DNA of 64,000 nt from an uncultured bacterium (GTDB taxonomy: Bacteria > Desulfobacterota_D > UBA1144 > Nemesobacterales > UBA2774): assembly GCA_963825135.1 (NCBI GenBank), contig CAWGRW010000009.1:640001-704000 (forward strand). Direction: 5' to 3'. The translations under genes and the position numbers were made by a program. Of this stretch, positions 3,140 through 58,061 are shown piece by piece. Below the pieces are notes generated by a model, which saw only the letters and a program-made list of their open reading frames with translations, did not search any database and had not been told where the DNA came from. Position 1 is the stretch's first letter, and the number at the start of each line of letters is the position of its first letter.

Positions 3140-4471
3140 TTAGAAGAGCCTGCCCGGATTGAGTATGTTCAAGGGATCGAACCCCGATTTTATCCTTTTC
3201 ATCAGGCCGAGCGAGGAGCCGATGCCGCCCCAGGCGTCCACTTGGGCTTTAACCTCGGGGGACGCCTCCGATACCGCGAGGCTCCCGCCAGCCGATTCGG
3301 AGAATTCCCTCAGCTTTTTCACTGCGTCAACGACGTGCTCCTTATCACCGCTTATCGAAATTATCACGACCCCGTTTGCCGCCCTCGCCGACGCACGAGC
3401 GGCGAGGGCCCCCGCGCGCGATAAATCCTCGAGCGTCAGGAATAAACGCGGGACGTCGGAGATGAGCACGCCCGCCTTTAGGACCGCGCCCGGGGATGCC
3501 GCCCGCCTCCATGGAAATTCCCTTACTTCGTCCCAGAAGGCATCCTCTTTCCCGCCTTCCAGCACCGCGCCCTGCCCTCCGCTCCCGGAAAAAATATCCG
3601 CAACCGTCTTTATCTGGTCCTCCACGGCCCGCGCCACGTTCATTATCCTCACGGCGAGCGTGTAGCCCCTTTGGCTCATGGCGACGCCCGCCCGCCCGGA
3701 TATATCGTCCGCAAGACCCGGGGTCAGGTGCTCGAGAGCCGTAATCACCAGATTGGAGTCGATGAGGGATTTAACCGTATCGTGGGCCTTATCGAGGGAT
3801 TCGAAACCTGCTAAATATGTCCTGGACAGCTCGGGGACGGGGTAGAGCCTGAAAGTCGCTTCCGCGATAATTCCGAGCGTGCCGAGGGACCCGACGAAGA
3901 GCTTGGGCATGTCGTACCCGGCGACGTTTTTTACGACCTTCGAGCCGCCCTTAAATACGCTCCCGTCCGCCCGCACCACCTTCATGCCGATAAGGAGCTC
4001 CCTCGAGGTCCCGTACCTGAGCCTCATGGGGCCGCTGTCGTTTGTGGCGATGATGCCTCCTATCGTGGCTCCGTCGCGCGCATGGGGCGGATCGACCGGC
4101 AGGAACTGATTCTCAAACGCGAGCTGCGTCTGGAATTCGGCGAGTGTAATTCCGCACTCCGCCGTTACCACGAGATCGGCCGAATCGTGCTTGATAACAC
4201 GGTTGAGCCTCTTGGTCGAAACGACGATATCCGCGCGGCCGGGCCTGTTCCCCAGGCCGCTCTTCGTTCCCGAGCCCCGGGGTATTACCGCGAGGCGATC
4301 GCGCGCCGCCGCCTTCATGATTTCAGATATCTGCTCTATGTTTTCAGGGAAGAGTACGATAGCCGGTTTGACGCCGTCCACGGAGGACGGTTCGAGGAGG
4401 CGTGAGTCCTCGATCGCGTTTTCCTTACCGACAATGCTTACCAGATGATTCAATGCGGCGGACTGAGACAT
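3140..4471 (-). CDS. glcE: FAD-binding glycolate oxidase subunit, GlcE-like
   Basis: PRGSGTK, GATIGG, GGSKVVKNVAGYDMPKLFVGSLGTLG, C-terminal FDPLNILNPGR. Confidence 0.85.
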   Translation of the reverse strand: MSQSAALNHLVSIVGKENAIEDSRLLEPSSVDGVKPAIVLFPENIEQISEIMKAAARDRLAVIPRGSGTKSGLGNRPGRADIVVSTKRLNRVIKHDSADLVVTAECGITLAEFQTQLAFENQFLPVDPPHARDGATIGGIIATNDSGPMRLRYGTSRELLIGMKVVRADGSVFKGGSKVVKNVAGYDMPKLFVGSLGTLGIIAEATFRLYPVPELSRTYLAGFESLDKAHDTVKSLIDSNLVITALEHLTPGLADDISGRAGVAMSQRGYTLAVRIMNVARAVEDQIKTVADIFSGSGGQGAVLEGGKEDAFWDEVREFPWRRAASPGAVLKAGVLISDVPRLFLTLEDLSRAGALAARASARAANGVVIISISGDKEHVVDAVKKLREFSESAGGSLAVSEASPEVKAQVDAWGGIGSSLGLMKRIKSGFDPLNILNPGRLF

Positions 4472-10048: not shown

Positions 10049-10719
10049 CTCTCATACACCGTAGGGTCGGGAACTCCGGCGTCGATAAAGGCCCTCTTTC
10101 TCTCCCTGCAGGAGCTGCACGCCCCGCAGTGCGCGTCCCCTCCCTTGTAACAGCTCCAGGTCTCGCCGAACGGCACTCCCAGCTCCGCGCCCAGCATGAC
10201 GATGTCCGCCTTATCCATGAAGACGAACGGAGCAAGGATGTTGAGATCGGGGTTGGCCGTGGCGAGCCTCTCGGATGTCTGAAATGATTCCACGAACTCC
10301 TCCCTGCAGTCGGGATAGACGCCCCTGTCGGAACTGTGAGCGCCGAAAAACACGTAGTCCGAGCCCGTGCTCACGGCGCGTCCGACGGCGATAGAGAGGA
10401 AAATCGCGTTCCTGTTGGGGACTATGGTGGTCTTGAGCGTATCGTAGTGCTCGGCTGTCTCGGGCACTTCCGGTATGTCGATATTCGCGTCGGTCAGGGC
10501 CGAGCCCGTGAGTATCCCGCCTAACGGGGAGAGGTCGATAACCCTGTGCGGGGCGCCCGCCCCGGCCGCTACCCTGCGCGCGGAATCCACTTCCCTTCCG
10601 TGCTTCTGCCCGTACATAAAGGTAAGGCACTCCGCTTCATATCCTTTTCTCAGGCAATCATAGAGGAGTGTCGAGCTGTCTATACCCCCCGATAATATGA
10701 TAACGGCGTTCTTATTCAT
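10045..10719 (-). CDS. queC: 7-cyano-7-deazaguanine synthase
   Basis: SGGIDS, VPNRNAIF, YPDCR, TWSCY...CGACSSC. Confidence 0.95.
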   Translation of the reverse strand: MNKNAVIILSGGIDSSTLLYDCLRKGYEAECLTFMYGQKHGREVDSARRVAAGAGAPHRVIDLSPLGGILTGSALTDANIDIPEVPETAEHYDTLKTTIVPNRNAIFLSIAVGRAVSTGSDYVFFGAHSSDRGVYPDCREEFVESFQTSERLATANPDLNILAPFVFMDKADIVMLGAELGVPFGETWSCYKGGDAHCGACSSCRERKRAFIDAGVPDPTVYER

Positions 10720-20610: not shown

Positions 20611-21624
20611 ATGATAGGCATAGAGACGCTCGACGAATTCATTATAAGAAAGCAATCCGAATTACCCTACGCTCACGGAGACCTGTCGAGGCTGCTGAGG
20701 GACATCGGCCTCGCGGCGAAGATCGTCAACAGAGAGGTGAACAAGGCGGGTCTCGTCGACATACTCGGGAGCACGGGAAAGAAGAACGTCCAGGGGGAGG
20801 AGGTAAAGAAGCTCGACGTGTTCGCGAACCGGAGGTTCATCGCGGCTCTCGAGCTGGGCGGACAGTGCTGCGGCATCGCGTCCGAAGAGAACAAGGACTT
20901 CATAACGTTTCACGACGAGATATCCAAGGACGCGAACTACGTCGTGGCGCTCGACCCGCTCGACGGCTCGTCCAACATCGACGTCAACGTATCGGTCGGG
21001 ACCATATTTTCGATATATAGACGGGTCTCCCCTCTGGACGGCGCTGTAACGAAGGAAGACTTTCTTCAGACAGGAAGGAAGCAGGCCGCGGCGGGCTATA
21101 TAATATACGGCTCGTCCACCATGCTCGTTTATACGACGGGATTCGGCGTAAACGGCTTCACGCTCGACCCCTCTATCGGCGAATTCTGCCTTTCCCATCC
21201 GAATATGATCATCCCGAAGACGGCCAAGACGTATTCGGTGAACCAGGGGAACTTCCTGAGCTTTCCCGAAGGCGTAAAACAGTACATCAGGTATTGCAAA
21301 GAACTGGACAAGGCGACGAACCGCCCGTATTCCCTCAGGTACATAGGCTCGATGGTGGCGGATATACACCGGAACCTCATCACCGGAGGGGTATTCCTCT
21401 ATCCCGCCACATCGGACGCGCCCAACGGCAAGCTGAGGCTCCTCTACGAATGCAACCCGATGTCGTTTATCGTCGAGCAGGCTGGAGGCAGGGCGACCGA
21501 CGGATCGAGACACATACTCGACATCAAGCCCGGGGAGCTCCACCAAAGAACGCCTGTATTCATAGGGTCGGAGCAGATGGTTTTAAAGCTGGAGGAATTC
21601 ATAAAAGAGCATCCTGCGGATTGA
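20611..21624 (+). CDS. fbp: class 1 fructose-1,6-bisphosphatase
   Basis: [42 protein letters not shown]. Confidence 0.96.
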
Positions 21625-21770
21625 GCGGAAGGGGAAGTCTCGCCGGGCTCAGCACGACGACGCGCGCTCCCGGAAATAAAAAAACACATATCCCGTAACC
21701 GTTCACAATCCCTTAACATTCTGGTGTTATTTCGCCGAGAATTTGCTTCGTTTTCGGGCGCCGGATTTAC

Positions 21771-21798
21771 TTGACTTTTCAAAGTCAGGGTGTATCGT
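21771..21798 (+). promoter_or_regulatory. putative promoter with overlapping palindrome
   Basis: TTGACT-16-TATCGT; perfect inverted repeat TGACTTT-TC-AAAGTCA over the -35. Confidence 0.45.
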
Positions 21799-21830
21799 TT
21801 CAGATAAATCACCGCTACGGGAGAATTAAC

Positions 21831-22013
21831 ATGGAAATCGAACTTGAACTGCATTTAAAGGACGATGACTGGGAAGATGATGAGGACGAATGGGACGAAG
21901 ACGAGGAAGAATTATGGGACGAGGACGAAGATGAGGAGCTTGACGAAGACGAGGATTGGGACGAAGAAGACGAAGAGGAATGGGAGCAGGAAGAAGAGCA
22001 GTCAATCAACTGA
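21831..22013 (+). CDS. small, extremely acidic protein (60 aa)
   Basis: GGGAG RBS, then MEIELELHLKDDDWEDDEDEW...; D/E-rich with periodic Trp. Confidence 0.65.
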   Translation: MEIELELHLKDDDWEDDEDEWDEDEEELWDEDEDEELDEDEDWDEEDEEEWEQEEEQSIN

Positions 22014-22164
22014 GGGTCAGCTTACACAATAACGAACATCCCAATAAGTTTCCGGGAAAATCAAACAAGCCTTGAACTGAAGAATCCGACACAAGCCGAG
22101 CCGTTTTAATCTCCGGATTGAGACAACGACGGCGCTGTGACAAAAAAAGAAAACCGAATACGGA

Positions 22165-22198
22165 TGATGCCCGGGGCCGGATTCGAACCGGCACGGGC
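22165..22198 (-). repeat. duplicated 3' end of tRNA-Leu(TAA), att-like site
   Basis: TGATGCCCGGGGCCGGATTCGAACCGGCACGGGC matches 27808-27841 at 32/34. Confidence 0.85.
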
Positions 22199-22421
22199 AG
22201 TTTCCGCCCCGACTGCAGATCCGTCCCGTATCCGTAGAATTAGTTATTGCGGGGAAAGGTCCGTTTATTCGCTTTCCCGCCGTCGGGATTAAAAAAAGCC
22301 CCGGCCAAGGTTCAGGAGGAGCTTAGTCCGGGGCTTGCATTTGAACCTCTGTGGAAAGGTCGGTTAATTATATCCCCATTCCGGAAAAGGCGGGCGTCCG
22401 AAATATAAATAAGAGCCCGGC

Positions 22422-22583
22422 TATGAATTCACGGCAGCCTTTCTTATTGGTTTCAGTTACTACTGAGCAGCATGCAACTCACTTCTCTGCCGTCGGCCAA
22501 TCGGGTCCGGTTTATTTTGGGTTCAATGGATCATCCCACGAACACAAGCTTTCGAGTAGTCAGCCCAGGACGTCCGAATTCTC
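22422..22583. repeat. array repeat copy 1 (block B 22422-22509 + block C 22510-22583)
   Basis: Near-identical to 25099-25260. Confidence 0.9.
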
Positions 22584-23081
22584 TTATTCATCGAATTCGT
22601 TGCTCGCTTGTAACCGTTTGCGCACGGCGAAGAACACTCCGACGAGCATAAGTCCCGCAGCGGCCGCGATCATGCCCCATTCGGAAAGCGCGGGGATGTC
22701 ACGGGCGATGGTCGAGTTAAGGTTGCATCCCTGGATCAATCGTTCCCTGCAATTATCGTATTCTTCGTCAGTAAGGCCAATGTTGGCAGAACCTATAGTA
22801 TCTTCAAATATACGACAAGCTTTGCCCTCGCCAATAAATACATCATAACCCAGCTCAAGTTTTTCACCGCCAGGCCTAACAATTTCAACTTGCTCCTCAG
22901 TTACGATTGATTCGTTGCCCGCTGCAAGATTACCGCCGGGACATAGAATATCGACGATTTCGTCGCCGCTATTCCCATTCGACAATTCAGCAGTATCACA
23001 CGGACAAGAAGGTATTTGCGCAAATGCATAAGGAGAAATAAACAGAACTGTCAATAATATAAATAGGTTAAAGCGCCTCAT
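22584..23081 (-). CDS. IPTL-CTERM sorting domain protein 1 (Cys-rich)
   Basis: Signal peptide; IPALSEWGMIAAAAGLMLVGVFFAVRKR tail; RBS favours ATG 23081. Confidence 0.88.
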   Translation of the reverse strand: MRRFNLFILLTVLFISPYAFAQIPSCPCDTAELSNGNSGDEIVDILCPGGNLAAGNESIVTEEQVEIVRPGGEKLELGYDVFIGEGKACRIFEDTIGSANIGLTDEEYDNCRERLIQGCNLNSTIARDIPALSEWGMIAAAAGLMLVGVFFAVRKRLQASNEFDE

Positions 23082-23249
23082 TCTCAACCCCCCTCTATAA
23101 ACAGTTTTATATGCAAATAATAAGCTAAAGCGATTATAGCACTTTGAGGTTCGCGGTGCAATATGTGTATTGCCGACGTTGGAGAGACCAGCGACAAAGC
23201 AGGCGAGGCGGTAGGCGTATCGGGAAAGACTTACGAAAGATTGAGACCG

Positions 23250-23437
23250 TATAAAGGGAAGCCCTGAACTGCTGGAGGATGAGTACAGCAGAACAGGGCT
23301 TCATTTAAGGAGAACCGTACAAGGTTCCCGATCTGTTTATAGCAGAAATTATGAATTCACGGAAGCCTATCTTATTGGTTTCAATGACTTATGAGCAGCA
23401 TGCAACTCACTTCTCTGCCGTCGGCCAATCGGGTCCG
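23250..23437. repeat. array repeat copy 2 (partial block A + block B)
   Basis: Matches 24129-24316 with a few substitutions. Confidence 0.9.
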
Positions 23438-23944
23438 TTACGCGCTCGCTTGTAACCGTTTCCTCACGGCGAAGAAGACTCCGACGAGCATAAGTCCCGC
23501 AGCGGCAGCGATCATGCCCCATTCGGAGAGGGTAGGGATGGGATTGATTGGCTGATTAATAAACGCGACAGCTCCATTTGAAAACCCGGGACCGATACAC
23601 CTAAATTTAATCCCATTTTCGACCCTCTCAACTAGCACGCCGCTGATCGTGAAGTACAATATATCCTCAAACCTCCACCCTTCGGGTACGACCTCTGTGA
23701 TCGTAACAATATCTCCCTTTTTTGCATTAATATTTTCCTGCTCACCAAACGATTGAATAAAAAATGTTGATTCCGCCCCATTCAGATTTAGTGCAAACTC
23801 AAACACCTCACCCACAGGTGCGATTTTTGATATTTGTATGAGGCATTGATCCTCATCCTGCGAAAAACCCGGTACTGCTGATAAGTATATAAAACCGGAT
23901 ACAATAAGAAAGAACAGAAAAGGTTGGAATCCAAGTTTAGTCAT
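23438..23944 (-). CDS. IPTL-CTERM sorting domain protein 2 (beta-sandwich-like)
   Basis: Signal peptide; IPTLSEWG tail; GGAGG RBS before ATG 23944. Confidence 0.88.
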   Translation of the reverse strand: MTKLGFQPFLFFLIVSGFIYLSAVPGFSQDEDQCLIQISKIAPVGEVFEFALNLNGAESTFFIQSFGEQENINAKKGDIVTITEVVPEGWRFEDILYFTISGVLVERVENGIKFRCIGPGFSNGAVAFINQPINPIPTLSEWGMIAAAAGLMLVGVFFAVRKRLQASA

Positions 23945-24071
23945 ATTAATCCTCCGCAAAGAGTTGACTTACGCCCATTATCACACGTTTAATAATTATT
24001 TGCAAATGTACAACAATAATTCTCCGGCAAACCTCTTATTCGCCCCTCAAAATTCAAACTGACCCAATACC

Positions 24072-24316
24072 CTTAATTCGCATAATTCACCTTGTTCGCA
24101 TTCATGGATGGACAGAGAAACAGAGCTATATAAAGGGAAGCCCTGAACTGCTGGAGGATGAGTACAGTAGAACAGGGCTTCATTTAAGGAGAACCGTACA
24201 ATGGTTCCAACTTGTTTATAGCAGAAATTATGAATTCACGACAGCCTTTCTTATTGGTTTCAATGACTTATGAGCAGCATGCAATTTACTTCTCTGCCGT
24301 CGGCCAATCGGGTCCG
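24072..24316. repeat. array repeat copy 3 (block A + block B)
   Basis: 245 bp, near-identical to 24942-25186. Confidence 0.92.
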
Positions 24317-24844
24317 TTACGCGCTCGCTTGTAACCGTTTCCTCACGGCGAAGAAGACTCCGACGAGCATAAGTCCCGCTGCGGCCGCGATCATTCCCCA
24401 TTGGGAAAGCGTGGGGATGTTCGCCACTCCCTGCACATTCGTTATCACGCAAAAAGTATCCAATTGCGGGGTCACGCATTCCTCGATCCACCCACCCTCA
24501 ATCTCGGTAATATCGAGCCCGCCGCCGGGTTCGCATACGATTCCTCCGAACGCCCATCCGGATTGCGGTTTTTCTGTTATAATATGAGATGTCCCCGCCT
24601 CAACAAAACCACTCGAACCCATGGGGTCACCGGCGGTAATGAAAAACGTAAAAGTCTCCCCGGTTTCCACCACTTCGCCGTTGAATTGGAATTCCCTGCC
24701 CTCCGCCCCGGGAGCTACTTTGGTAGTTTCGATAAAGCATTCGGTAGGCTGGGCTGCGCTATTCCCCGCGGTCATGAATAAAACGACTGGGATTATGAAA
24801 ACGAATAATATAAGGCAGTTAAATGATCGAAAGATCCTCGGCAT
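24317..24844 (-). CDS. IPTL-CTERM sorting domain protein 3
   Basis: Signal peptide; ITEKPQSGW...C...C..TN pattern; IPTLSQWG tail. Confidence 0.88.
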   Translation of the reverse strand: MPRIFRSFNCLILFVFIIPVVLFMTAGNSAAQPTECFIETTKVAPGAEGREFQFNGEVVETGETFTFFITAGDPMGSSGFVEAGTSHIITEKPQSGWAFGGIVCEPGGGLDITEIEGGWIEECVTPQLDTFCVITNVQGVANIPTLSQWGMIAAAAGLMLVGVFFAVRKRLQASA

Positions 24845-24941
24845 ATAAACCTCCCCAATTCTTTTTATTCACGATATTACAACATTTGTGAGTATAAATC
24901 CAGCGTAGCAGCAGTACCATCCCCTTCTCGGTGTATCCGGG

Positions 24942-25260
24942 CTTAATTCGCATAATTCACCTTGTTCGCATTCATGGATGGACAGAGAAACAGAGCTATA
25001 TAAAGGGAAGCCCTGAACTGCTGGAGGATGAGTACAGTAGAACAGGGCTTCATTTAAGGAGAACCGTACAATGGTTCCAATTTGTTTATAGCAGAAATTA
25101 TGAATTCACGACAGCCTTTCTTTTTGGTTTCAGTTACTACTGAGCAGCATGCAACTCACTTCTCTGCCGTCGGCCAATCGGGTCCGGTTTATTTTGGGTT
25201 CAATGGATCATCCCACGAACACAAGCTTTCGAGTAGTCAGCCCAGGACGTCCGAATTCTC
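24942..25260. repeat. array repeat copy 4 (blocks A + B + C)
   Basis: A+B match copy 3, B+C match copy 1. Confidence 0.92.
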
Positions 25261-26166
25261 TTATTCATCGAATTCGTTGCTCGCTTGTAACCGTTTCCTC
25301 ACGGCGAAGAACACTCCGACGAGCATAAGTCCCGCAGCGGCCGCTATCATCCCCCATTCGGATAGGGTCGGAATTGGGTTTATTATTGGACCACATGAGC
25401 CCTTCCATGCAAGGCCATCGATTACAGCATCTACACCGTTCGAGCCGACCAGCGTTGCTTCCCCGGTGGTTACATCCACAATAAATAACTGCCCCAACGT
25501 CCCGTCGTTGGCATATAAAATCTGATTGCATTCATCGTATGCTAGCCCAACGTCGAGGCTTGTAGCAGGGATGCCGGTAGCACCTATAAGGGTCGCGGTG
25601 CCTGTTTCGGTCGAGACTGTATAGAGCGACCTTTCATCGGATATAGCATACAGTATGCCGTTCGCGTTATCATAGGCCATACCGGGGCCATGGAAACCTA
25701 CTCCAGAACCTATAGTCGCCACGGAGCCGTCCGGGAACTGTGCAGTAAGTATATCGGAATTATTGAAATCAATAGTGTATAAAACGCCCCCAGCCTCATC
25801 AGACGCCAGACCATGCCAGTTAGCCGAACCGTTTTGATTACTCAGAAACGTTATAATTCCGCCCGTCGAGATCGACCCGATGTCATTACCTCCTGAACCT
25901 CCAGGAAAATCGTACAGGTCCACACCGTAGAGAGTTCCCTGAAGGAATGAGAGGCCCGTTATGCTCGCATTGCCGTCGAGTGTCACAATCGGTGTAGCCG
26001 TGCCGTCGGATGAATCGATAAAATATAATACGGCGGGCGTGTTACTCGACAGACCAATCAACCCGTCAGGAAAAGTTTGCGCGTGGACTAGACCGGCAGT
26101 TAAGAAAAGTGTTAAAGCAATAGCCAAATTTATTCTATGTAAGAAGAATACGATAATTTTCCTCAT
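25261..26166 (-). CDS. IPTL-CTERM sorting domain protein 4 (beta-propeller-like repeats)
   Basis: Repeated GLAYD...LY...LYTV..TG.ATL.G units; IPTLSEWG tail; GGAGG RBS before ATG 26166. Confidence 0.88.
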   Translation of the reverse strand: MRKIIVFFLHRINLAIALTLFLTAGLVHAQTFPDGLIGLSSNTPAVLYFIDSSDGTATPIVTLDGNASITGLSFLQGTLYGVDLYDFPGGSGGNDIGSISTGGIITFLSNQNGSANWHGLASDEAGGVLYTIDFNNSDILTAQFPDGSVATIGSGVGFHGPGMAYDNANGILYAISDERSLYTVSTETGTATLIGATGIPATSLDVGLAYDECNQILYANDGTLGQLFIVDVTTGEATLVGSNGVDAVIDGLAWKGSCGPIINPIPTLSEWGMIAAAAGLMLVGVFFAVRKRLQASNEFDE

Positions 26167-26382
26167 ATTATCCTCCCTAATAATATTAGTCAAATTATAT
26201 TACTATTAATTAAAACTGAATACAATACAACTTATTTTTGTTTCCTGACAGCGGCTTATCCAGTATTCATTTTCATTTCCTTTTCCCACTTTACTTGGCC
26301 ATGATAAGGTCTATGGCTTCTGTGACCCCGTGATGGAATGTTAGTGTGAGCATCCCGAGGTGGAGATGGTTGTGCATTGAGC

Positions 26383-26877
26383 TTAAGCTCTAGCTCTCTT
26401 CAGTCTCAGCACAAAGAACAAACTGACTATACCCAATCCCCCTGCGGCCGCGATCATACCCCATTCGGATAGGGTCGGAATATTCGAAACAGCACCCACG
26501 TTCGTGAACGTGCAGGTGACGTCGCCGCCGCCGTCGCATGTGGCCGTGAAACCGTTATCCGTAATTTCGAACCCTGTCGCGCCCGTACTCTCGCACTCAA
26601 CATCTGAGAGCTCCCATCCCGCTAACGGCAGCTCGGTCACAGTGACTCTCGAATTAAAAGTGCCTCCATCCGAGCCTCCGCCCTCTATATTAACAAAAAA
26701 GGGCTCTTTACCGTCCGATGTGACCTCGAATGGAAATAGGACACCGCTGCCTTCAGGCGCCTCTTTTATGACAACTGCATTACACGCACCCTGCCCAAAG
26801 GCGGCTTCTCCGAAACCCACGAGCATCATAAGACCTGTCAGTACGAAAACTATAGAGAAAACACGGTGATCGAACAT
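26383..26877 (-). CDS. IPTL-CTERM sorting domain protein 5
   Basis: Signal peptide; VTELPLAGWELSDVEC...CTFTN; IPTLSEWG tail with divergent TM/basic end; not followed by the repeat. Confidence 0.88.
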   Translation of the reverse strand: MFDHRVFSIVFVLTGLMMLVGFGEAAFGQGACNAVVIKEAPEGSGVLFPFEVTSDGKEPFFVNIEGGGSDGGTFNSRVTVTELPLAGWELSDVECESTGATGFEITDNGFTATCDGGGDVTCTFTNVGAVSNIPTLSEWGMIAAAGGLGIVSLFFVLRLKRARA

Positions 26878-26971
26878 TTTATAATCCTCCCTCAATTATG
26901 ACTTTAAGCCATCATAATGATATTTCTATTTCTAAGTCAATCGCTTCACTTCCCCTTCCCGCCGTACCCTA

Positions 26972-27051
26972 CACGGCAGCCGTTCTTTTTGGTTTCAGTT
27001 ACTACTGAGCAGCATGCAATTTACTTCTCTGCCGTCGGCCAATCGGGTCCG
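26972..27051. repeat. array repeat copy 5 (block B only)
   Basis: CACGGCAGCC...CTGCCGTCGGCCAATCGGGTCCG. Confidence 0.88.
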
Positions 27052-27052
27052 G

Positions 27053-27565
27053 TTACGCCCTTGTCCGTAACCGTTTCCTCACAGCGAAGAACACTCCGAT
27101 CAGCCCGAGTCCCGCAGCGGCCGCTATCATCCCCCACTCGGAAAGCGTTGGAATCGCGGAAATAAGCGGGAGGTTGCGAATGATACAGGTTGCATCTCCA
27201 TCACTTGCGTCCTCGCACAGAATTGAGAATCCGCCATCGAAATTGGTAATGACAATGCCGGGTCCCGCGTCACATTCTAAACCGGCGAGCCGATATCCGT
27301 TCTGTGGTTCTTCATAAATTGTTACGGACGAACCTTCGGGAATGGTTCCCCCAGTGGGCTCGCCATCCACGAGTGTAAATTCGAACGGTCCGCCCGGGCT
27401 CACCCCTTCAAAAACAAATTCGAGACTGCCCGCTCCCGGCGCAGACTTTGTAGCTTGTACTGCACATTCTCTCTCCTGGGCGTTCGCACCGGATACAAAA
27501 AAACCGCCTACTGAGGCGGCTGCGAATAAAGCAATGCATATGATGTAGCTAAAGACCATTCTCAC
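27053..27565 (-). CDS. IPTL-CTERM sorting domain protein 6
   Basis: Signal peptide; IPTLSEWG tail; GAGGAGG RBS before GTG. Confidence 0.88.
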   Translation of the reverse strand: MRMVFSYIICIALFAAASVGGFFVSGANAQERECAVQATKSAPGAGSLEFVFEGVSPGGPFEFTLVDGEPTGGTIPEGSSVTIYEEPQNGYRLAGLECDAGPGIVITNFDGGFSILCEDASDGDATCIIRNLPLISAIPTLSEWGMIAAAAGLGLIGVFFAVRKRLRTRA

Positions 27566-27807
27566 GAAATATCCTCCTCCTCTAAATAATACGCATATCT
27601 TATTATATTTAATACATTATTGTCAACGTCATCCTTTCTTAGCTCGTAATTCATTCGAGATATCGGCGGAATGGATAATCACTCACTTCCCCCTCACCCT
27701 GCCCTCGGGCACAAAAAACGCGCTGCGCAAAAGATTAAAGGAGCGGAGTCATGGACACCACTTTGGCCACAAGCGTGATCGAGCTGAAAAAGGAAATCGA
27801 ACAAGGA

Positions 27808-27894
27808 TGGTGCCCGGGGCCGGACTCGAACCGGCACGGGCGTGAACCCGAGGGATTTTAAGTCCCTTGCGTCTACCTGTTCCGCCACCCGGGC
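27808..27894 (-). tRNA. tRNA-Leu(TAA)
   Basis: GCCCGGG acceptor, AGGGA-CT-TAA-AA-TCCCT anticodon arm, long variable arm, GTTCGA, encoded CCA. Confidence 0.96.
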
Positions 27895-28015
27895 TTTCTG
27901 ACAATTCCGCCTTCTGAGACTGCCTAGGAATAATAACAGAAAGGAATGTATTTTACAGCCTTTGCCATCTCATTCAATAGCGGGTTTTGGAATGAAGCCG
28001 ACCCCATATGACCGA

Positions 28016-29332
28016 CTATTTCTTTGTTTGCAGAGGTAAACCATAGCTGGCTTCTCTTAAGTCCGTCTCAAATGCCTCATTTGTTTTATTTAAATCAATA
28101 TGTGTTATCACAGCATCATATAAACTCTCAGCTAGACGTTGTGCTTTATAGGATTCAGTATAGGATACTTGCCTACGACCACCGTGTACTAGAGAGGAAC
28201 GATATTCATACGACTCTATGATATCTTTTGCAATATCCCTTCTCCTTTCGGGTCTATCATCGAGAATAGTAGCGGCATTACGAGCAATTGTTTGGATCAC
28301 CGGTGCAGATTTATCTCCACTAGAAACTAATGCTTCTATCGCAGTATAAAAGAAAAGTAAGCGTTCAGATCTGTCTTCGGCATGGCGACCCCTAGTCAAC
28401 CAGCCCATGCCATGGGCGACACGTTCAGCCACAGTATTCTTCTTGTAATTGAAAATGGTATTTGAAAACTTGTCAAAATCGATTTTTTTGAAGTGTTCTA
28501 AAGTATTGTTATCTACGGTATAAAGAACTGGCATCGATCCACCACCTGCATTTACATTCCTATCTTGAGTCCGAATGATAATTCTTGGATTATAAATCAC
28601 CGGAGCAAGGGTAGGATGTGCCTCCTTTTTACCCCACATTGGATAGAACGGATTTTTATGATTTCCTGGGTAAGATAGCCTTATGCAACTAATTGCGATA
28701 TTTATTAGCCAAAAAGCCTCTTCTTCGACATTACTAGGCGAAGTATTTAATCTGACTTCCCAACAAAATGGAGGATAGAAAATATTTAGACCGTTGGAAT
28801 CTAAGCTCGTCGTCGGACTTGAACTTAGTATGAATGACCAATTAATTCGATCTCCTTGCTTAACATAGTCGTTTGGTAATGTTTGGGACATCCGAATTTT
28901 AACAGGTCCAACTTGTAACTCTTTAATATTATCTAGAAGTTCAATCACAAAATTAGGGGCTATAAATATAAATTCGGTTTCACTTTGTTGATCAACTTTG
29001 GCAGTGAAGTCCTTTACTGCTTGATCTATATTATTAGGATCCATTTTCGAAGCTATATCCCATGCCACCCTTTCAATATCAATTTCATGACCAGATTTAG
29101 AACCTAATTTTTTAGTACAGCTTTGGACTAGATTTGTGAGAGATCTGATAACTTCTGGACTCGTAATAAAAAATTTACCGCCATGCATAGCAAAGTTGAA
29201 AGATTGAATTGCTTCGAGGTTTTCTGCTTGGGACTTTGATGATGCATTTGACACATGATTAAAAAATACGGATGCATGTTGTCTTATTGTTGAGTCGCTA
29301 TACAGTTTATTGGTATTACCCTGTTTCCTCAC
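28016..29332 (-). CDS. HEPN domain protein (ApeA-like), possible defence RNase
   Basis: C-terminal AIEAL...YEYRSSLVHGG (Rx4H); markedly AT-rich. Confidence 0.75.
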   Translation of the reverse strand: MRKQGNTNKLYSDSTIRQHASVFFNHVSNASSKSQAENLEAIQSFNFAMHGGKFFITSPEVIRSLTNLVQSCTKKLGSKSGHEIDIERVAWDIASKMDPNNIDQAVKDFTAKVDQQSETEFIFIAPNFVIELLDNIKELQVGPVKIRMSQTLPNDYVKQGDRINWSFILSSSPTTSLDSNGLNIFYPPFCWEVRLNTSPSNVEEEAFWLINIAISCIRLSYPGNHKNPFYPMWGKKEAHPTLAPVIYNPRIIIRTQDRNVNAGGGSMPVLYTVDNNTLEHFKKIDFDKFSNTIFNYKKNTVAERVAHGMGWLTRGRHAEDRSERLLFFYTAIEALVSSGDKSAPVIQTIARNAATILDDRPERRRDIAKDIIESYEYRSSLVHGGRRQVSYTESYKAQRLAESLYDAVITHIDLNKTNEAFETDLREASYGLPLQTKK

Positions 29333-29415
29333 ATACTTAATTTACAATAGAAGGATTTTTAAATCTACATGTTAAATCTATAGAAATCTCTTACCACTGT
29401 ACAATTTTGTAAACC

Positions 29416-29481
29416 TCACCCTCCCCCGTCCCTGAGGTGCCTTAGGTAGCGCACGCGAAGGAGCCGCTTCTGACGGAGGCT
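29416..29481 (-). repeat. diverged copy of the 3' tail of the rep-like gene
   Basis: About 57/66 identical to 30040-30105; encodes SLRQKRLLRVRYLRHLRDGGG*. Confidence 0.85.
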
Positions 29482-29484
29482 CCG

Positions 29485-29924
29485 TCACCGTCCGGGAAGC
29501 CGCGTCTGGATCTCCTGGAGCAGCCAGCCGTTCCCGTCCGGATCCTCGAACGAGGCAAACGAGAAGTAGGAACGGCCTTCCGGGTCGCGCCCGCCGACGC
29601 GTGGGTTCTCCACGGCGTTGTTGAAGGGGCCGCCGGCGTAGTGGAAGACCTCGCTCACGTCGACGCCGCGGGCGATCAAGTCGTCGCGGGCGGCGTCGAC
29701 GTCGTCCACGGCGAGGACCAGGTGGTCAGCCGAGCCGGGCCTGGCGACGTGATCCCCTTGCCGAAGATGATCGAGGCCTCGAGTTGGGCGGCGTCACCTG
29801 CACGCCGCGGAAGTCGCCGACGGCGACGTCGATGTCGAGCCGCCACCCGAGCTTCTCGTAGAACGCTTTCGCGCGATCGACGTCGGAAACGCCGAGCACC
29901 ACGACTTCGAGCTTCATCGTCCAT
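29485..29924 (-). pseudogene. VOC/glyoxalase family gene, frameshifted
   Basis: MKLEVVVLGVSDVDRAKAFY..., ASIIFGKGIT..., SFASFEDPDGNGWLLQEI lie in different frames; high GC. Confidence 0.8.
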
Positions 29925-30039
29925 GATCTCAACTCCTCTCCATATGTCTTGCAGGTAGCCTGCCGACCCGGGTTACCACTATCTCAAATAAAATGCCTCG
30001 AGTCAAGATCGATTTTCCGCATCTTGCATCCTCCCTCAC

Positions 30040-30790
30040 TCACCCTCCCCCGTCCCTGAGCTGCCGGAGGTAGCGCACTCTGAGGAGCCGCCTCTGCCAG
30101 AGGCTTTCCTGCGGGTCGGGCTCGCCGGGCTTCTGCAGCTTAAACGCCTCCCTGTCGAACTCCCTCCGCTCCCGGGGCGTGAGCGCATGCATGTGATCGG
30201 CGGCTTCGAGCAGTGTAACTCTGTCATCGTAATCATCGACTGGAGGAGGCAGAGACGAAGAAGCGTGAGCTTCTTCAGGCGCGCGTATTTTCTTTTTGCG
30301 CGCTTCTTTATTTACTGTGTATTCATTCTCCGTGCTTCCTTTAACTGTGTATTCCTTAGGGTTCATATTTTGAACACCCGGGGGTTCATTATCTGAACAG
30401 GGGTGTTCATATTCTGAACGGGTGGGTGACGAATCCTTCACCCTCCCGCGCGTATCTGACTTTCGCTTCTTCGATAATCCGACAGAGATCCCTTGAGACG
30501 AAGTAGTTATGAGAGCGCCCCGGAACGGGCTCCCTGCGGATGAGGCCGGATTCCACAAGGCTGTTTATTGCCCTGAGTGCGGTGTTTTTCGACCCGAAGC
30601 CGCAGTCCCTGCATATCCTTTCGACCGAAGGGAAAGACCTCCCCGCCCTGTCGGCGCGCCTCATGAAGTAAATGAGGACGAGCTTCTCGTTCGCCGTGAG
30701 CGGCAGATCGAAAACCAGGTCGGGGACCTGAAAATATCCCCCGCTAAACTCAACCGGACCCTCTCCGGGCCCTCTACCGTACTTATTCAA
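30040..30790 (-). pseudogene. phage/plasmid-type HTH replication initiator-like gene; +1 frameshift near 30420-30470
   Basis: LTANEKLVLIYF...SFPSVERICRDCG...LRAINSLVESGLI winged HTH; spacer/C-terminal part continues in the next frame. Confidence 0.7.
30361..30419. repeat. three iteron-like palindromes GTTCA-N5-TGAAC
   Basis: At 30361-30375, 30384-30398 and 30405-30419. Confidence 0.8.
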
Positions 30791-30880
30791 AACAGAAACA
30801 AACCCCGGACGCTCCTCCCGCGCTCCGGGATTAAAACCCCCATCACTCCATATTCTCTCCGCTCCTTAACCCCGGAGGGC

Positions 30881-30950
30881 AAAAAAAAGACGGAGATATA
30901 CGTGCTGCTGCCCGTCAAAGTTCCGGGCCGAGTACGTATATTCCCGTCTT
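30881..30950 (-). terminator. long hairpin plus U-tract between tRNA-Cys and the rep-like gene
   Basis: AAGACGG..ATATACGT..GCCCG / CGGGC..ACGTATAT..CCGTCTT, followed by T8 on the minus strand. Confidence 0.6.
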
Positions 30951-31081
30951 AAAGACTCCGCTCCCGCGAAGGGAGGAGTAAGTGAATAATTTCAGCGCAT
31001 ACCGCAGAAAAAACCCCGCCTGAGTACCTATATATACTAGAGATTAACCCAACGGCCGGATTTGCACAAGATACGAATTTA

Positions 31082-31156
31082 TGGAGGCGGCGCCCGGATT
31101 CGAACCGGGGCGTTGCGGTTTTGCAGACCGCTGCCTTACCACTTGGCTACGCCGCC
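31082..31156 (-). tRNA. tRNA-Cys(GCA)
   Basis: GGCGGCG acceptor, GCGGT-CT-GCA-AA-ACCGC arm, GTTCGAA, encoded CCA. Confidence 0.96.
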
Positions 31157-31274
31157 TTTTATGCATCCACGACGGCCTGATTCCTACGAATAGACCGTCA
31201 TTTTCAGCAAGAAGCCCTAAATTATGAACGACATTTTAAGATTATCAAGCGAAAGGGCGTCCGGGCTCCGTGGA

Positions 31275-32067
31275 TCAGACACACATCTCCCCCTTGAATA
31301 CCGTCACCGCCTTGCCGACGAGCTTTACCCTGTCTCCCATCACGCGGACGCCTATAACTCCCCCGCGCAGGGACGCCTGGTACGCGAGGAATTCGGATTT
31401 GCCGAGCTTCTTCTCCCAATAGGGGCCGAGGCAGCAGTATGCGGAGCCCGTCGCGGGGTCTTCATCGATGCCAGACGCCGGGCCGAAGAAGCGGCATATG
31501 AAATCGTATTCTGGCAGGTCGGAAGCGGCCGTGACCATGACCCCCCTCACCGGGATAGTGCCGAGGAGCGCGAAGTCGGGCCTGAGCGCCCTCACCTCTT
31601 CTGCCGTCCCGGCCTCGACGAGATAATCGAACCTGTTTTTACCTATATATAAGGGCTTCACGCCGAGAGACTCGACCAGTGCCGGAGGAGCGTCCGCCTC
31701 CCGCTCCGGCTCGGACGGGAAGTCGAGCTCGATCATGTCTCCCCGCATTGCGGCGGTGAGCACGCCGCTCAGGGTCTGGAACTCGATCGCTTCGCCGCGT
31801 GAGACGCGCCCTGTTTCCCACAGTATATGCGCGCTCGCGAGCGTCGCGTGGCCGCAAAGCTCCACCTCGACCGTAGGGCGTGAACCAGCGAAGTTGTAAC
31901 CCCTTCTCATCCCTGTACAGAAAAGCTGTCTCGGAGACGTTCATATCCCGCGCAACGTTCTGCATCCACGCGGGCTCGGCCGGGCCGGGCATAATGCAAA
32001 CTGCCGCCGGGTTCCCGCCGAAAGGCTTCTCCGTAAACGCGTCAGCCTGATATATCTCTATTGCCAT
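31275..32067 (-). CDS. PhzF family isomerase; +1 frameshift near 31877 as given
   Basis: DAFTEKPFGGNPAAV...SETAF...RWFTP | TVEVELCGHATLA...EDPATGSA across two frames. Confidence 0.87.
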
Positions 32068-46374: not shown

Positions 46375-49394
<3,020 letters not shown>

Positions 49395-49499
49395 AAGGTA
49401 TGAAAATCACCGCATAATTAAGCACGCTCGATTTACTCAGCACAATATGAAATTGTCAAAGATCCATGCAAATAAACATTTGCTTTGTTTGCAATGTTT

Positions 49500-49573
49500 T
49501 GGAGGTGAGCGGGATCGAACCGCCGACCTCCTGCTTGCAAGGCAGGCGCTCTCCCAAGCTGAGCTACACCCCC
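49500..49573 (-). tRNA. tRNA-Ala(TGC)
   Basis: G3:U70, CCTGC-CT-TGC-AA-GCAGG arm; in rRNA spacer; CCA not encoded. Confidence 0.96.
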
Positions 49574-49637
49574 GATCTAACTATCAATCCGAGAAACTCA
49601 ATAAAGTAAGAATCAAGTATTAGATCAACTATATCGG

Positions 49638-49714
<77 letters not shown>

Positions 49715-49818
49715 GTCAGTTAATCCAACAGGCGACTCCACTTTACTCCGAGAAAGCACCAAAATTTAATAGCAGATAAAGCGAGCAAAAGAACGAGAAA
49801 GCAATTTTTCTCCGTGAA

Positions 49819-51381
<1,563 letters not shown>

Positions 51382-51483
51382 ATCTTATGAAATGATTGCT
51401 TAGCTCTTCTTTGCCCGCTTATCTGCTATTTAATTTTCAAAGATCTGAAATATCTTTTCAGATATTTTGCCAAAGGGACATAT

Positions 51484-51511
51484 AATATAAATGAACAAAA
51501 AAGGATGTCAA
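51484..51511 (-). promoter_or_regulatory. rRNA operon promoter
   Basis: TTGACA-16-TATATT, followed by boxA-like GATCTTTGAAAATT. Confidence 0.7.
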
Positions 51512-51783
51512 GACAATTTGACGATCTTTTTGAAAAACCCTGCAAATCCGAAAACCCGGGGAGAGATTCAGCATCCGAAAATGTTGAATCCACAAGAGCA
51601 CTAAAAGTATCTAACTTGTTAAAACCGGACTCAGACCTTAAGATATAGTATACATATTTCCAGGATAATCAAGTCGGATTTTTACTTATCGGCATTTGCC
51701 CCATTCCGGGTTGAAAGTATTCGTTTTCTGTATTAATTTTATTCCTCGCTCGGAAACGAAAGAAAGAGGACGGTAATAAAAAA

Positions 51784-52935
51784 ATGGGTCTCACAAACGA
51801 ACAGATAAGACGTTATTCAAGACACCTGATAATGCCTGAGGTCGGCGTCGAGGGACAGGAAAAGCTCGTCAACGCGAGGGTATTGTGCGTCGGCGCCGGG
51901 GGGCTCGGCTCGCCGCTCGCCCTTTACCTGGCGGCCGCGGGCGTGGGGCACATGGGGATACTGGACTTCGATGTAGTCGATTTCAGCAACCTGCAGAGGC
52001 AGATAATTCACAGCGAAGAGACCCTCGGGGTGCTGAAGGTCGAATCCGCCAGGGACAGGATCCTCGGGCTTAACTCCGACATCGACGTCAAGACATACAA
52101 CACCATGCTCACGTCCGAAAACGCCATGGACATAATCAAGGATTACGATATAGTGGTCGACGGGACCGACAACTTCGCCACGAGGTACCTCGTGAACGAC
52201 GCCTGCGTGCTGCTCGGAAAGCCGAACGTGTACGGAAGCATATTCCGCTTCGAGGGCCAGGTCAGCGTGTTCGACGCGAAGAGGGGCCCGTGCTACAGGT
52301 GCCTTTACCCGGAGCCCCCGCCCCCGGGGCTCGTGCCCAGCTGCGCGGAGGGGGGCGTGCTCGGAGTCCTGCCGGGCGTAATAGGAACGATGCAGGCGGC
52401 CGAGACCGTAAAGCTGATAATCGGAAAGGGGACTCCTTTGATAGGGAAGCTCCTTTTTATCGACGTGATGGAGATGAAGATAAGGGAGCTTATACTCCGC
52501 AAGGACCCCGACTGCCCGATATGCGGCGAGCACCCGGTAATAAAGGAGCTCATAGACTATCAGGAATTCTGCGGCATAGGGCGAGGGGAAGAGGTCCCGG
52601 GATTCGCCGAGGACGACAGCCTCGAAATCTCCGTCGATGATTTCAACGAGCTGAGGACGAAAAACGGCAAAGCCGTAGTACTCGACGTCAGAGAGCCGCA
52701 CGAATACGAGATATGCAGCCTCGACGGCTCTACCCTCATACCCCTCGGGGAGCTTCCCGAGAGGGTGAACGAGCTCGACACGGCGGACGATATCGTCGTG
52801 TTCTGCCACAGCGGGGGGAGGAGCCTCCAGGCCACGCGGTTCCTGAGAAACATGGGTTTTAAAAAGGTCAGAAACCTGAAAGGCGGCATAGACGCCTGGG
52901 CCGAGAAGTACGACCCGGATATGCCGAGGTATTAG
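51784..52935 (+). CDS. moeB: molybdopterin-synthase adenylyltransferase with rhodanese domain (MoeB/MoeZ)
   Basis: RYSRHL, GAGGLGS, SNLQRQ, CYRC, CAEGGVLG, FCHSGGRS. Confidence 0.92.
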   Translation: MGLTNEQIRRYSRHLIMPEVGVEGQEKLVNARVLCVGAGGLGSPLALYLAAAGVGHMGILDFDVVDFSNLQRQIIHSEETLGVLKVESARDRILGLNSDIDVKTYNTMLTSENAMDIIKDYDIVVDGTDNFATRYLVNDACVLLGKPNVYGSIFRFEGQVSVFDAKRGPCYRCLYPEPPPPGLVPSCAEGGVLGVLPGVIGTMQAAETVKLIIGKGTPLIGKLLFIDVMEMKIRELILRKDPDCPICGEHPVIKELIDYQEFCGIGRGEEVPGFAEDDSLEISVDDFNELRTKNGKAVVLDVREPHEYEICSLDGSTLIPLGELPERVNELDTADDIVVFCHSGGRSLQATRFLRNMGFKKVRNLKGGIDAWAEKYDPDMPRY

Positions 52936-53311
52936 TTCCATTTTCGTCCCTAAAAACCGGGCTTCACACAAACCATGCTCACCGACGGCAATTCGCTTTC
53001 GGCCCTTATATACCGCCGGCGGCGAATTGCCGGTAGTCATGCAGTCGCGCATCCCGGGATACCCGGGGTGATGTTCGCGGATTTCACCTCCGTTTAAATT
53101 CCTCTATTCCCCGTTAGTCCACAACGAGTTTCATCGATTTCAAAATCCCTCCCCGAACGGTCGGGCGGCGAATCTAAAACCGGTAGAGGCACTGCGACCG
53201 CTCGTCAGGGTGTAAACTTACAAGCCGGGGATGTGTTCTATAAATCATTTGACAACAATTTATCCCATGTGAGAAAATAGGACTGCTGGTACAAAGAGCG
53301 GGAGGAATGGA

Positions 53312-55144: not shown

Positions 55145-55204
55145 GACGCGATGAAGACCTGGCCGTTAACCGGAGCGCCCCGCCTATGGCGGCCCGGACG
55201 CGGA

Positions 55205-55516
55205 TTAACTATACTTCTTGACGGCCTTTTCGATGTCTTTCGTCGCTTTTTTCAGGTCATCCGGGATCATCGCCGGGCGAATCTCGACACTGGCGTTGAA
55301 TGCGAGGAACCAGGGCTCAGCCAGCGACGGTATCTGTGAAGCGTCCTTCATGTCGAGGAAAATCAAGCCCGTCCTCTGGCCGTTCATCTCGACAAAATAT
55401 GCCGCTTCAGGCTTTTGTTCGGCGAGAATCGATGCAACCGTTTTACCCAGGCTGCCTTTCTTGGCCGCCTCGTTGCCGGCCTCGACAGGAATAGAAACCT
55501 TCATAAAAAACCGCAT
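55205..55516 (-). CDS. hypothetical protein (DUF3303/GYD-like)
   Basis: KPEAAYF...GQRTG...IPSLAEPWF pattern; GAGG RBS. Confidence 0.65.
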   Translation of the reverse strand: MRFFMKVSIPVEAGNEAAKKGSLGKTVASILAEQKPEAAYFVEMNGQRTGLIFLDMKDASQIPSLAEPWFLAFNASVEIRPAMIPDDLKKATKDIEKAVKKYS

Positions 55517-55636
55517 GGAGCACCTCTTTAAGTTTTATTTGTAGTGATAGTATTCCACTATAGGCAGTCAAGTACAACGAAAATTTTGGTACGGCGCGAA
55601 AGCGCTAACACGCTTGCTTACGCTATTTCGTTTTTA

Positions 55637-55860
55637 TCATTCGTCCGGCTTGGATACCGCGTTCTTAAGGGCGTCTGGTGTTGGGTGCGAATAACGCATG
55701 TTCATCTGGATTGAGGAGTGTCCAAGAAGTTTGGACACGGCCGCCAAATCGACTCCGGAGAGGGCCGGTAGAGGGGCGAATGTGTGTCTAAAGTCATGAG
55801 ATCGAGGATTTTTAATGCCTGCCCGATTACCGGGGTTTTTAAATGCGGTCCGAATAACAT
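55637..55860 (-). pseudogene. tyrosine integrase C-terminal remnant
   Basis: RSHDFRHTFA...VSKLLGHSSIQMNMRYSH directly downstream of tRNA-Leu(CAA); N-terminus missing. Confidence 0.82.
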
Positions 55861-55908
55861 TTGGGAATTTAAACCAAAGAGTAAAAACCTTCGTATTATC
55901 CCAAAGAA

Positions 55909-55992
55909 TGGGCAGGGAGGGAGTCGAACCCTCACGAGCGTGAGCCCAACGACTTTTGAGGCCGTCGCGTCTGCCGGTTCCGCCACCTGCCC
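55909..55992 (-). tRNA. tRNA-Leu(CAA)
   Basis: GGGCAGG/CCTGCCC acceptor, ACGGC-CT-CAA-AA-GTCGT arm, long variable arm; CCA not encoded. Confidence 0.94.
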
Positions 55993-56157
55993 TTTTTAGT
56001 GGGAACATTATTATTCTCTGCAATATAAAAAGAATCAATAGGACGAGAACGGGAACGGGCGCTCGCGGACGAGGGTTGACATCAGATACTCTTCATGTAA
56101 CATAACGTTTTTATTTACTTTTATTTTGCTTTTTAATAAGCGAAGGAGAATTCCACG

Positions 56158-57177: not shown

Positions 57178-57181
57178 GGGA

Positions 57182-57784: not shown

Positions 57785-57942
57785 GGAATTACCTCACCCG
57801 GACTAGAGAATGAAGACCTGGAAAAATAGTACATAAGAGGCTCGAACAAAACAAACAGAGCCCGGCCCGGCGGCCCGACGATAAAATACCGGCCGCGCAA
57901 TTTTGCTATGTTCGGGGGGATCAAAAAGGGCAAAAAAAAAGA

Positions 57943-58061
57943 ACCAAGGCAGCTTCCTACTTTCCCACTCCCGTACAGGAGCAGTATCATCGGCCTCGAA
58001 GAGCTTAACTTCCGGGTTCGGAATGGGACCGGGTGTGACCTCTTCAGTATTACCACCTAGA
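57943..58061 (-). rRNA. rrf: 5S rRNA, stand-alone
   Basis: CACACCCGGTCCCATTCCGAACCCGGAAGTTAAG...GGGAAAGTAGG; ends approximate. Confidence 0.95.

Follow-up and report, generated by a model that had tools for sequence, protein, structure and literature searches.

In the available part of the description of PEP-CTERM/EpsH protein sorting (Haft et al., 2006, PMC1569441), the sorting tail is presented as a module appended to unrelated proteins, and most PEP-CTERM genes are single-gene operons. The closest known case to the locus analysed here is the lpl cluster of the Staphylococcus aureus island nuSa-alpha, in which tandem surface-protein paralogues each hold a conserved stretch within the open reading frame (ORF) that was proposed as the recombination site; in the accessible text of that study (Tsuru and Kobayashi, 2008, PMC2568036) each evolving unit starts at this stretch, spans the intergenic region and extends into the following gene, deletions, substitutions and conversions are the outcome, and inter-locus recombination was not found. 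In the literature searched, a single paper names IPTL-CTERM, for an S-layer protein (available part of PMC8671808), and the searches returned nothing combining Dadabacteria and exosortase and nothing on shuffled arrays of IPTL tails carrying an insert. Here, a stretch of 64,000 nucleotides from the genome of an uncultured bacterium (GenBank assembly GCA_963825135.1, contig CAWGRW010000009.1, positions 640,001-704,000; hereafter the window) was analysed, in which six genes (g1-g6) encoding IPTL-CTERM proteins lie in tandem next to tRNA-Leu(TAA). Judged from sequence, this array is probably a tandem cluster of exosortase H substrates that evolves by ordinary homologous recombination at a shared 3′ arm.

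Members of the array and probable exchange at their tails

The six ORFs are co-oriented, as a preliminary description of this DNA had stated, and lie on the minus strand (Table 1; coordinates without a prefix are those of the window), and all six proteins passed the cut-off of the TIGR04174 IPTL_CTERM model (21.4-27.1 bits against 20.5), with Pfam PF18203 over its cut-off in one of the six. Inspection by eye confirmed a hydrophobic N-terminus ending in an AxA/AQ-like site in all six proteins and a GGAGG-like ribosome-binding site at each gene. The two promoters put forward earlier, TTGCAC-17-TATAAT and TTGTAT-17-TAATAT, are present in the sequence, but neither is listed by the promoter scan, in which 13 sites were found against 7.5 +/- 2.9 expected. 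No exosortase is encoded within the window, again as described, and a profile search for the dedicated enzyme recovered a single one in the genome, XrtH at C9:944.9 kb, approximately 280 kb away (TIGR04177, 91.8 bits against a cut-off of 86), adjoining a gene for the NF041730 XrtH-associated membrane protein. The genome holds 77 TIGR04174 matches, many of them in tandem arrays, and 5 to 77 IPTL-CTERM proteins per genome were found in 23 of 24 family genomes and the source genome. Homologues carry the label Thermodesulfobacteriota. Across 41 genomes, among which kin are not independent, XrtH was present in 26 and IPTL in 28, with both in 26 and neither in 13. By every test that could be run on their sequences, the array genes are members of the IPTL-CTERM/XrtH system, and by analogy their products are probably exported, processed at the tail by XrtH and displayed at the envelope.

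The passengers preceding the tails had been taken as unrelated or highly diverged. Those of g2, g3, g5 and g6 are mutually related (25-39% identity in five of six pairs), and only those of g1 and g4 are unrelated to the rest. The g1 domain of approximately 100 residues contains six cysteines that are invariant across 51 aligned proteins, and its fold was predicted with confidence (mean pLDDT 86.6). The best structural match of this predicted model reached Z 5.0 with a root-mean-square deviation of 3.8 across 70 residues. Foldseek returned nothing at E<=0.001 and no Atlas match was obtained, results that show neither a known nor a new fold. Paralogues of g4 are located at C9:286919 and C10:44726, and the g2 passenger region has no match over most of its length in nine genomes of the genus.

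The tails had been called nearly identical at the DNA level. This was true of g1-g4 only (88-93% over 75 nt), while the g6 tail is 80-87% identical to those four and the g5 tail is 71-76% identical to all others, a level equal to the between-locus background of 75%. In a comparison of 35 in-register FFAV-type tails from 11 loci, from which 32 of the 67 tails lying out of the FFAV register, the small contigs and the end of C10 overlapping C9 were omitted, identity at four-fold (silent) sites was 0.574 within loci and 0.427 between loci, a value reached in none of 5,000 label permutations. The highest silent-site identity (0.641, 27 pairs) was obtained for tails of the same locus attached to non-homologous passengers, compared with 0.409 (153 pairs) for tails of different loci attached to homologous passengers, and the nearest tail belonged to the same locus for 21 of 28 genes, as against 11 of 28 for the nearest passenger. 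Incongruence across the conserved stretch was found in these nearest-neighbour and permutation tests as well as in the individual cases of g5 and g1. Relative to its paralogue at tRNA-Arg(TCT), g5 is 90% identical in the passenger and 79% in the tail; in 60-nt bins, identity remains at 85-97% through the passenger, then falls to 65% and 45% in the tail bins. For g1, 51 family homologues were collected, 49 with readable tails, of which none is filled by the insert described below and 43 are of another tail subtype, leaving g1 as the sole filled member among 50 with a readable tail.

Differences between contigs were seen at two other arrays, where C13 is 85-98% identical to C9 and C10. One passenger is replaced relative to C9/C10, with matching resuming at the start of the motif; 741 nt of C13 are missing in C10, the join lying at the N-I-P codons; and a unit of approximately 1.3 kb is missing in C13, with the join in the tail. 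The proposal that the tail and the sequence following it serve as a homology arm is supported in that tails sort by locus, the g1 and g5 tails mismatch their passengers and the C13 borders lie at or in tails. Among tail pairs of at least 85% identity, 50 of 58 have their start between -10 and +15 nt relative to the motif, a result that is in part trivial for unrelated passengers. Of the eight motif-starting arms of at least 150 nt, three are in the array, one joins two filled tails elsewhere and four join insert-free tails, so that the insert is not needed for such an arm; in arrays whose paired tails are insert-free, arms extend over 184-316 nt at 92-95% identity. Genes for RecA and a ComEC-family protein are present in the genome.

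The further claim of a dedicated cassette system, with the repeat as its dedicated part, was not borne out: the repeat is a copy of a dispersed insert family found in 8 of 67 tails, insert-free arrays possess similar arms, the 5′ junctions differ and none of the 10 matches to the integron integrase model TIGR02249 exceeds its cut-off. Searches for a serine resolvase, a Y1 transposase (PF01797) and a reverse transcriptase likewise found none in the genome, which is 94% complete.

The insert within the tail and the intergenic sequences

The shared non-coding block reported behind five of the six genes was recovered in five copies (83 nt, 89-98% identical to the reference copy), but it starts inside the coding tail. 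In the alignment of filled with insert-free tails, this block A begins in the ORF immediately after F-F-A-V-R-K, within the basic cluster, and ends before the stranded original tail end R-K-A-A-V-N-S-stop. By this alignment, the supposed separate repeat is a hairpin-headed insert within the tail. It brings a new stop, and it is presumably tolerated because it keeps R-K-R and this stop is in frame. The 7-bp stem of the head is paired in 98.7% of cells, with changes on both sides at three of the seven pairs (in 12 aligned sequences, few and related), and the two head types differ by three compensatory changes; block A itself folds no better than shuffled sequences (z +0.6 to -2.2). In g1 and g4, block B is a second copy located in the loop of the head hairpin of the first insert. 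A CRISPR-like reading of the apparent 67-nt period in these double inserts was dropped, since the period arises from the nesting of one insert within another.

Empty forms were encountered in contigs of run X3, which skip exactly 22446-22618 (joint 22445 to 22619) and 26988-27075 (joint 26987 to 27076); these were matched at 85% likeness and may represent relatives or paralogues. Elsewhere, two genes were each seen in both states, with the insert on one contig and without it on the alternative contig. Four other joints (22445 to 27115, 23536 to 25575, 23539 to 27483 and 24252 to 23496) were not used, as they have intervening letters or short sides and may stem from paralogues.

With a profile built from 28 units, the insert family gave 137 matches across the assembly, of which C9 holds 65 and C10 holds 41; their sites are IPTL tails, the 3′ ends of tRNAs and the loops of other palindromic repeats. 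Of the 67 tails located on the two large contigs, no more than 8 contain the insert under a strict pattern, whereas five of the six in the array are filled. A pattern search detected filled tails in 5 of 41 genomes, all of the genus (reversed control, 0), BLAST found them also in G001, and the codon position is the same in at least six genus genomes. At 70% identity, 11 of 25 inserts fall into one cluster, and heads, junction offsets and stranded ends differ. In empty tails the Phe-Phe codons tend, weakly, to pair with those for Lys/Arg, which places the insertion site in the loop (mean z -1.2; 26 windows averaging -6.0 kcal/mol against -4.7 in 243 passenger windows). A scan of genomes of all species for filled tails returned 14 matches, of which nine are due to chance and five are true tails, the titles of their records reading uncultured bacterium, delta proteobacterium or Thermodesulfobacteriota; no filled tail was matched in the virus collection, and a metagenome scan for the body of block A gave two loci, neither of them the array.

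Two further arrangements of the insert were observed. Tandem tRNA 3′ ends, each joined to a copy of the 90-nt insert, occur for Arg-CCT, Glu, Arg-ACG and Arg-TCT (Table 1), and orphan, insert-bearing IPTL tails lacking a passenger are located at G000 C10:148345-148423, L074 approximately 10200-10320 and L075 approximately 3320-3470, starting at W-G codons directly behind a C/G-rich hairpin repeat.

Upstream, the junctions differ from unit to unit: a fixed 5′ insertion site was ruled out, as the unique parts begin at 22421, 23250, 24072/24942 and 26972. Block C carries a hairpin (23250-23351, 24129-24182 and 24999-25052; z about -7), a homologue of which lies between two IPTL genes in G007 (L077:9985-10032), and is possibly a terminator. 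The short reading in the spacer at 23148-23250 resembles a helix-turn-helix remnant; helix-turn-helix and ribbon-helix-helix are putative labels for the spacer remnants, and neither the genome nor the examined loci yielded an intact parent for them. A short piece preceding several IPTL promoters reads as the C-terminal end of one small protein (YGGKGK-stop), always broken, and perhaps represents the end of a small tRNA-integrating element.

Table 1. Coordinates of the array genes, inserts, intergenic blocks and slot borders, with related pieces elsewhere
Feature	Position	Strand	Remarks
Displaced 3′ fragment of tRNA-Leu(TAA) with about 20 nt of flank	22144-22198	-	Far border of cargo slot; 89% identical to 27787-27841
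Stranded original g1 tail end	22421-22444	-	RKAAVNS-stop; aligns to end of insert-free paralogue
g1-tail insert, 174 nt	22445-22618	-	Second 87-nt copy (block B) nested at 22515-22601
g1, 165 aa	22584-23081	-	Signal peptide, six-cysteine domain, IPTL-CTERM tail ending RKRLQASNEFDE
Unique spacer with short reading	23148-23250	+	
Block C, truncated copy	23250-23351	-	Strong hairpin (z -7.0)
g2-tail insert, 88 nt	23373-23460	-	
g2, 168 aa IPTL-CTERM protein	23438-23944	-	Passenger related to g3, g5, g6
Block C	24075-24230	-	99% identical to 24945-25100
g3-tail insert, 88 nt	24252-24339	-	
g3, 175 aa IPTL-CTERM protein	24317-24844	-	Weak SpaA_4 (prealbumin-like) match below cut-off
Block C	24945-25100	-	Part also beside tRNA-Leu in G007
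g4-tail insert, 174 nt	25122-25295	-	Nested copy 25192-25278, 100% identical to that of g1
g4, 301 aa IPTL-CTERM protein	25261-26166	-	DUF4394 over cut-off, DUF6923 below
g5, 164 aa IPTL-CTERM protein	26383-26877	-	SpaA_4 over cut-off; only array tail without insert
YGGKGK-stop piece	26917-26975		
g6-tail insert, 89 nt	26987-27075	-	
g6, 170 aa IPTL-CTERM protein	27053-27565	-	SpaA_4 match below cut-off
tRNA-Leu(TAA)	27808-27894	-	Near border of cargo slot
YGGKGK-stop pieces elsewhere	L082:1167-1250; G000 C9:2204937-2205020		
Tandems of tRNA 3′ end and insert	G000 C9:368385-369214, 331090-331300, 86262-86800, 2203174-2203400		

The tRNA-Leu(TAA) slot and the origin of the array

The array region shows several traits of a tRNA-targeted island, namely an intact tRNA at one end, a displaced tRNA 3′ fragment at the other, a lower GC content (0.479, against 0.572 and 0.529 in the flanks) and variable cargo, but not an integrase of its own, as none of the eight PF00589 matches in the genome falls within 22144-27894. 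The orthologous region was retrieved from 20 of 40 relatives and the stretch from fbp to tRNA-Leu was assembled in 17 of these; the tRNA 3′ fragment is present at five of seven assembled loci of the genus. Gene content at this tRNA, which the preliminary description had proposed to compare across strains, varies from almost nothing to approximately 10 kb of other genes, with an IPTL tail in none of the 17 intervals. On this comparison of sequences, the array is therefore a lineage-specific occupant of a variable-cargo slot. At tRNA-Arg(TCT) in G009 and G001, homologues of g1, g4 and g5 occur together with the spacer that precedes g5 and with an insert of the same variant, and in G000 paralogues of g1 and g5 lie at tRNA-Arg(TCT) beside a split integrase; we infer that the array descends from this locus.

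An IPTL gene with an insert-bearing tail would have entered the slot, probably from the tRNA-Arg(TCT) array lineage since passengers, spacers and the insert variant are shared with it. Unequal crossing-over or conversion between arms composed of tail and insert, with or without block C (approximately 180-290 nt at 85-97% identity), would then have duplicated and homogenised the arm, and other passengers, drawn from the approximately 77 paralogues or from related cells, would have been added, the tail anchoring them by homology at one end while the other end had little homology or none. In transformable bacteria, foreign DNA is known to be joined in this way with a homologous anchor on one side only, which would, by analogy, fit the ragged upstream ends. 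The insert would lengthen the arm without being needed for exchange.

Several points weigh against this account. The array was encountered in one version only: none of the small contigs maps to it, and the read runs consist of short contigs; gains and losses of the array itself are what we infer, variation having been seen only at two other arrays. C13 may represent another strain or may in part be falsely joined at repeats, and the permutation count of 0 in 5,000 overstates the case because paralogues are not independent. One C13 join lies at the insert itself, as exchange driven by an element would also predict, and the excess of filled tails in the array over the 8 of 67 overall leaves room for element-promoted exchange. 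RecA acts poorly on arms as short as 75-100 nt with 75-90% identity, for which reason a first contact between two loci has to be a rare event.

It is unlikely that the genes instead arrived singly with their own tails, as accreting islets with no whole-unit crossover at this locus, and that short gene-conversion tracts later copied tail and insert, with or without block C, over the original tails. Such a history would agree with the slot gathering unrelated cargo in relatives, in one of them with two tRNA 3′ fragments, with the six passengers all differing and no recent whole-gene duplicate being found within the array, and with g5 having kept a different tail. However, a single tRNA fragment bounds the array and none lies between its genes, whole units differ between contigs at other arrays, and to convert the 156 nt of block C, homology would also be required beyond it, where the unique promoters offer none. 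A mover of the insert that cuts at the weak tail hairpin or at the insert and so starts exchange, by which the insert would act as a hot spot of recombination and the array as a genuine cassette platform that works without an integrase, is improbable, as is, taken as one joint claim, the fuller version in which a tiny mobile element repeatedly targets the Phe-Phe/Lys-Arg codon hairpin of an exosortase sorting signal, rewrites the C-terminus while leaving it functional, and makes these tails hot spots at which arrays of interchangeable surface proteins are built in the absence of an integrase. The shared codon position in at least six genus genomes, with two head types and several stranded ends, the tendency of empty tails to fold with the site in the loop, one unit-sized difference joined at the insert and the filling of five of six array tails speak for it. 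Yet half of the eight long motif-starting arms join two insert-free tails, the cluster of 11 among 25 inserts is the outcome expected if recombination spread a single old insertion, the hairpin of the tail is weak (see above for z), and no linked mover was found, the genome having one GIY-YIG gene (PF01541, C9:191943) and one DUF559 gene, both far away.

It is very improbable that the repeats and their order were produced by mis-joined long reads, even though the genome was assembled from a metagenome, contains frameshifts and has alternative contigs, and no independent piece spans the array. Between copies, 2-11% of sites differ, filled tails exist in other genomes, and pieces with 0-2 differences, some of them crossing borders between unique and repeated sequence, were found in independent runs of two studies (X1, X2, X6); the repeats are thus no invention of the assembly, while the gene order comes from the assembly alone. 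The end of C10 (C10:222287-224025) matches C9:10731-12469 at 98% along 1.74 kb, and since the match lies within an IPTL array, it was at an array of this kind that the assembly broke. An integron-like array of attC sites without an integrase, or a degenerate CRISPR-like array, has been largely refuted and is barely credible: there is one repeat per gene in the same orientation and an apparent 67-nt period in double inserts, but the block folds like shuffled sequences, complementary attC ends were not seen on inspection, no IntI was over cut-off, there was no Rfam match and the period comes from nesting. For CRISPR specifically, no Rfam CRISPR match was obtained and constant repeats with unique spacers were not encountered; cas genes were not searched for.

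In the surroundings of the slot, an Rfam scan of 21600-31300 returned tRNAs only. A 60-aa ORF at 21831-22013 consists almost entirely of Asp, Glu and Trp, its DNA being conserved behind fbp in most of the fetched relatives. Between tRNA-Leu and tRNA-Cys lies a low-GC ORF of 438 aa (28016-29332) with no Pfam or PADLOC match, for which the nearest named Atlas clusters (score under 0.9) have HEPN_Apea in 15-17% of members, and which is possibly a defence nuclease. A 67-nt direct repeat at 29415 and 30039 and an HTH_36 gene at 30407-30790 are found again in several relatives, in the interval from tRNA-Leu to tRNA-Cys and with cargo that varies, and 29415-30790 is a second small island remnant. Farther along the window (46375-58060), the 5S rRNA (57944-58060) is located approximately 6.5 kb upstream of the 16S gene and not behind 23S, with tRNA-Leu(CAA) and two integrase matches (55679-55858 and 58471-58977) near it.

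Comparison with known systems

As in PEP-CTERM sorting, a motif, a transmembrane helix and a basic cluster stand at the C-terminus of signal-peptide proteins, and there are many predicted targets and one sortase, encoded elsewhere. In contrast to that system as given in the available part of PMC1569441, the 77 matches here lie in many cases in tandem arrays, and the tails are homogenised at the DNA level, some of them carrying an insert. The modularity of the tail was presented in that part of the source only as protein architecture; the present data provide DNA-level evidence for the attachment of sorting signals to unrelated proteins, with the tail itself as recombination anchor, and place an expansion of IPTL-CTERM across a family of an uncultured lineage.

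As in lpl, each ORF holds a conserved DNA stretch that is more alike than its flanks. Unlike in lpl, so far as the accessible text describes it, the conserved stretch is the C-terminal sorting signal, because of which whole unrelated folds would be exchanged in the array, and the arm is lengthened by an insert; exchange here would also extend between distant loci, and the array is known in a single version.

The insert resembles other small hairpin-bearing repeats, such as the Neisseria NTS repeats with the Ssn nuclease, which in the available part of Chenal et al. (2025, PMC11893778) cluster by membrane-protein genes and affect transformation, and the REPINs (available part of PMC3116915), both systems with hundreds of copies. 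Unlike REP/REPIN systems, no RAYT was found in the source genome (PF01797 absent at 94% completeness). The small dispersed cyanobacterial repeats SDR1, associated with the name of Elhai and colleagues, are said to have a short covarying stem and a loop of approximately 10 nt and to lie inside other repeats; they are reportedly 21-27 nt in length, compared with 87-89 nt for the insert, a likeness that serves as a lead only. Integron arrays and CALIN share with this locus co-oriented single genes each followed by a repeat, but here the genes have promoter-like sites of their own, the repeat lies inside the end of the ORF, it has no attC form and a search for IntI gave no match over cut-off. Comparison of filled with empty tails sharply delimits an unexplained insert of 90 nt and provides a coding target in which its movement can be studied. 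The shuffling mechanism itself is of a known kind; what is new in comparison with these systems is evidence at the DNA level for tail-anchored exchange among exosortase targets, together with an unexplained mini-element inside a coding sorting signal.

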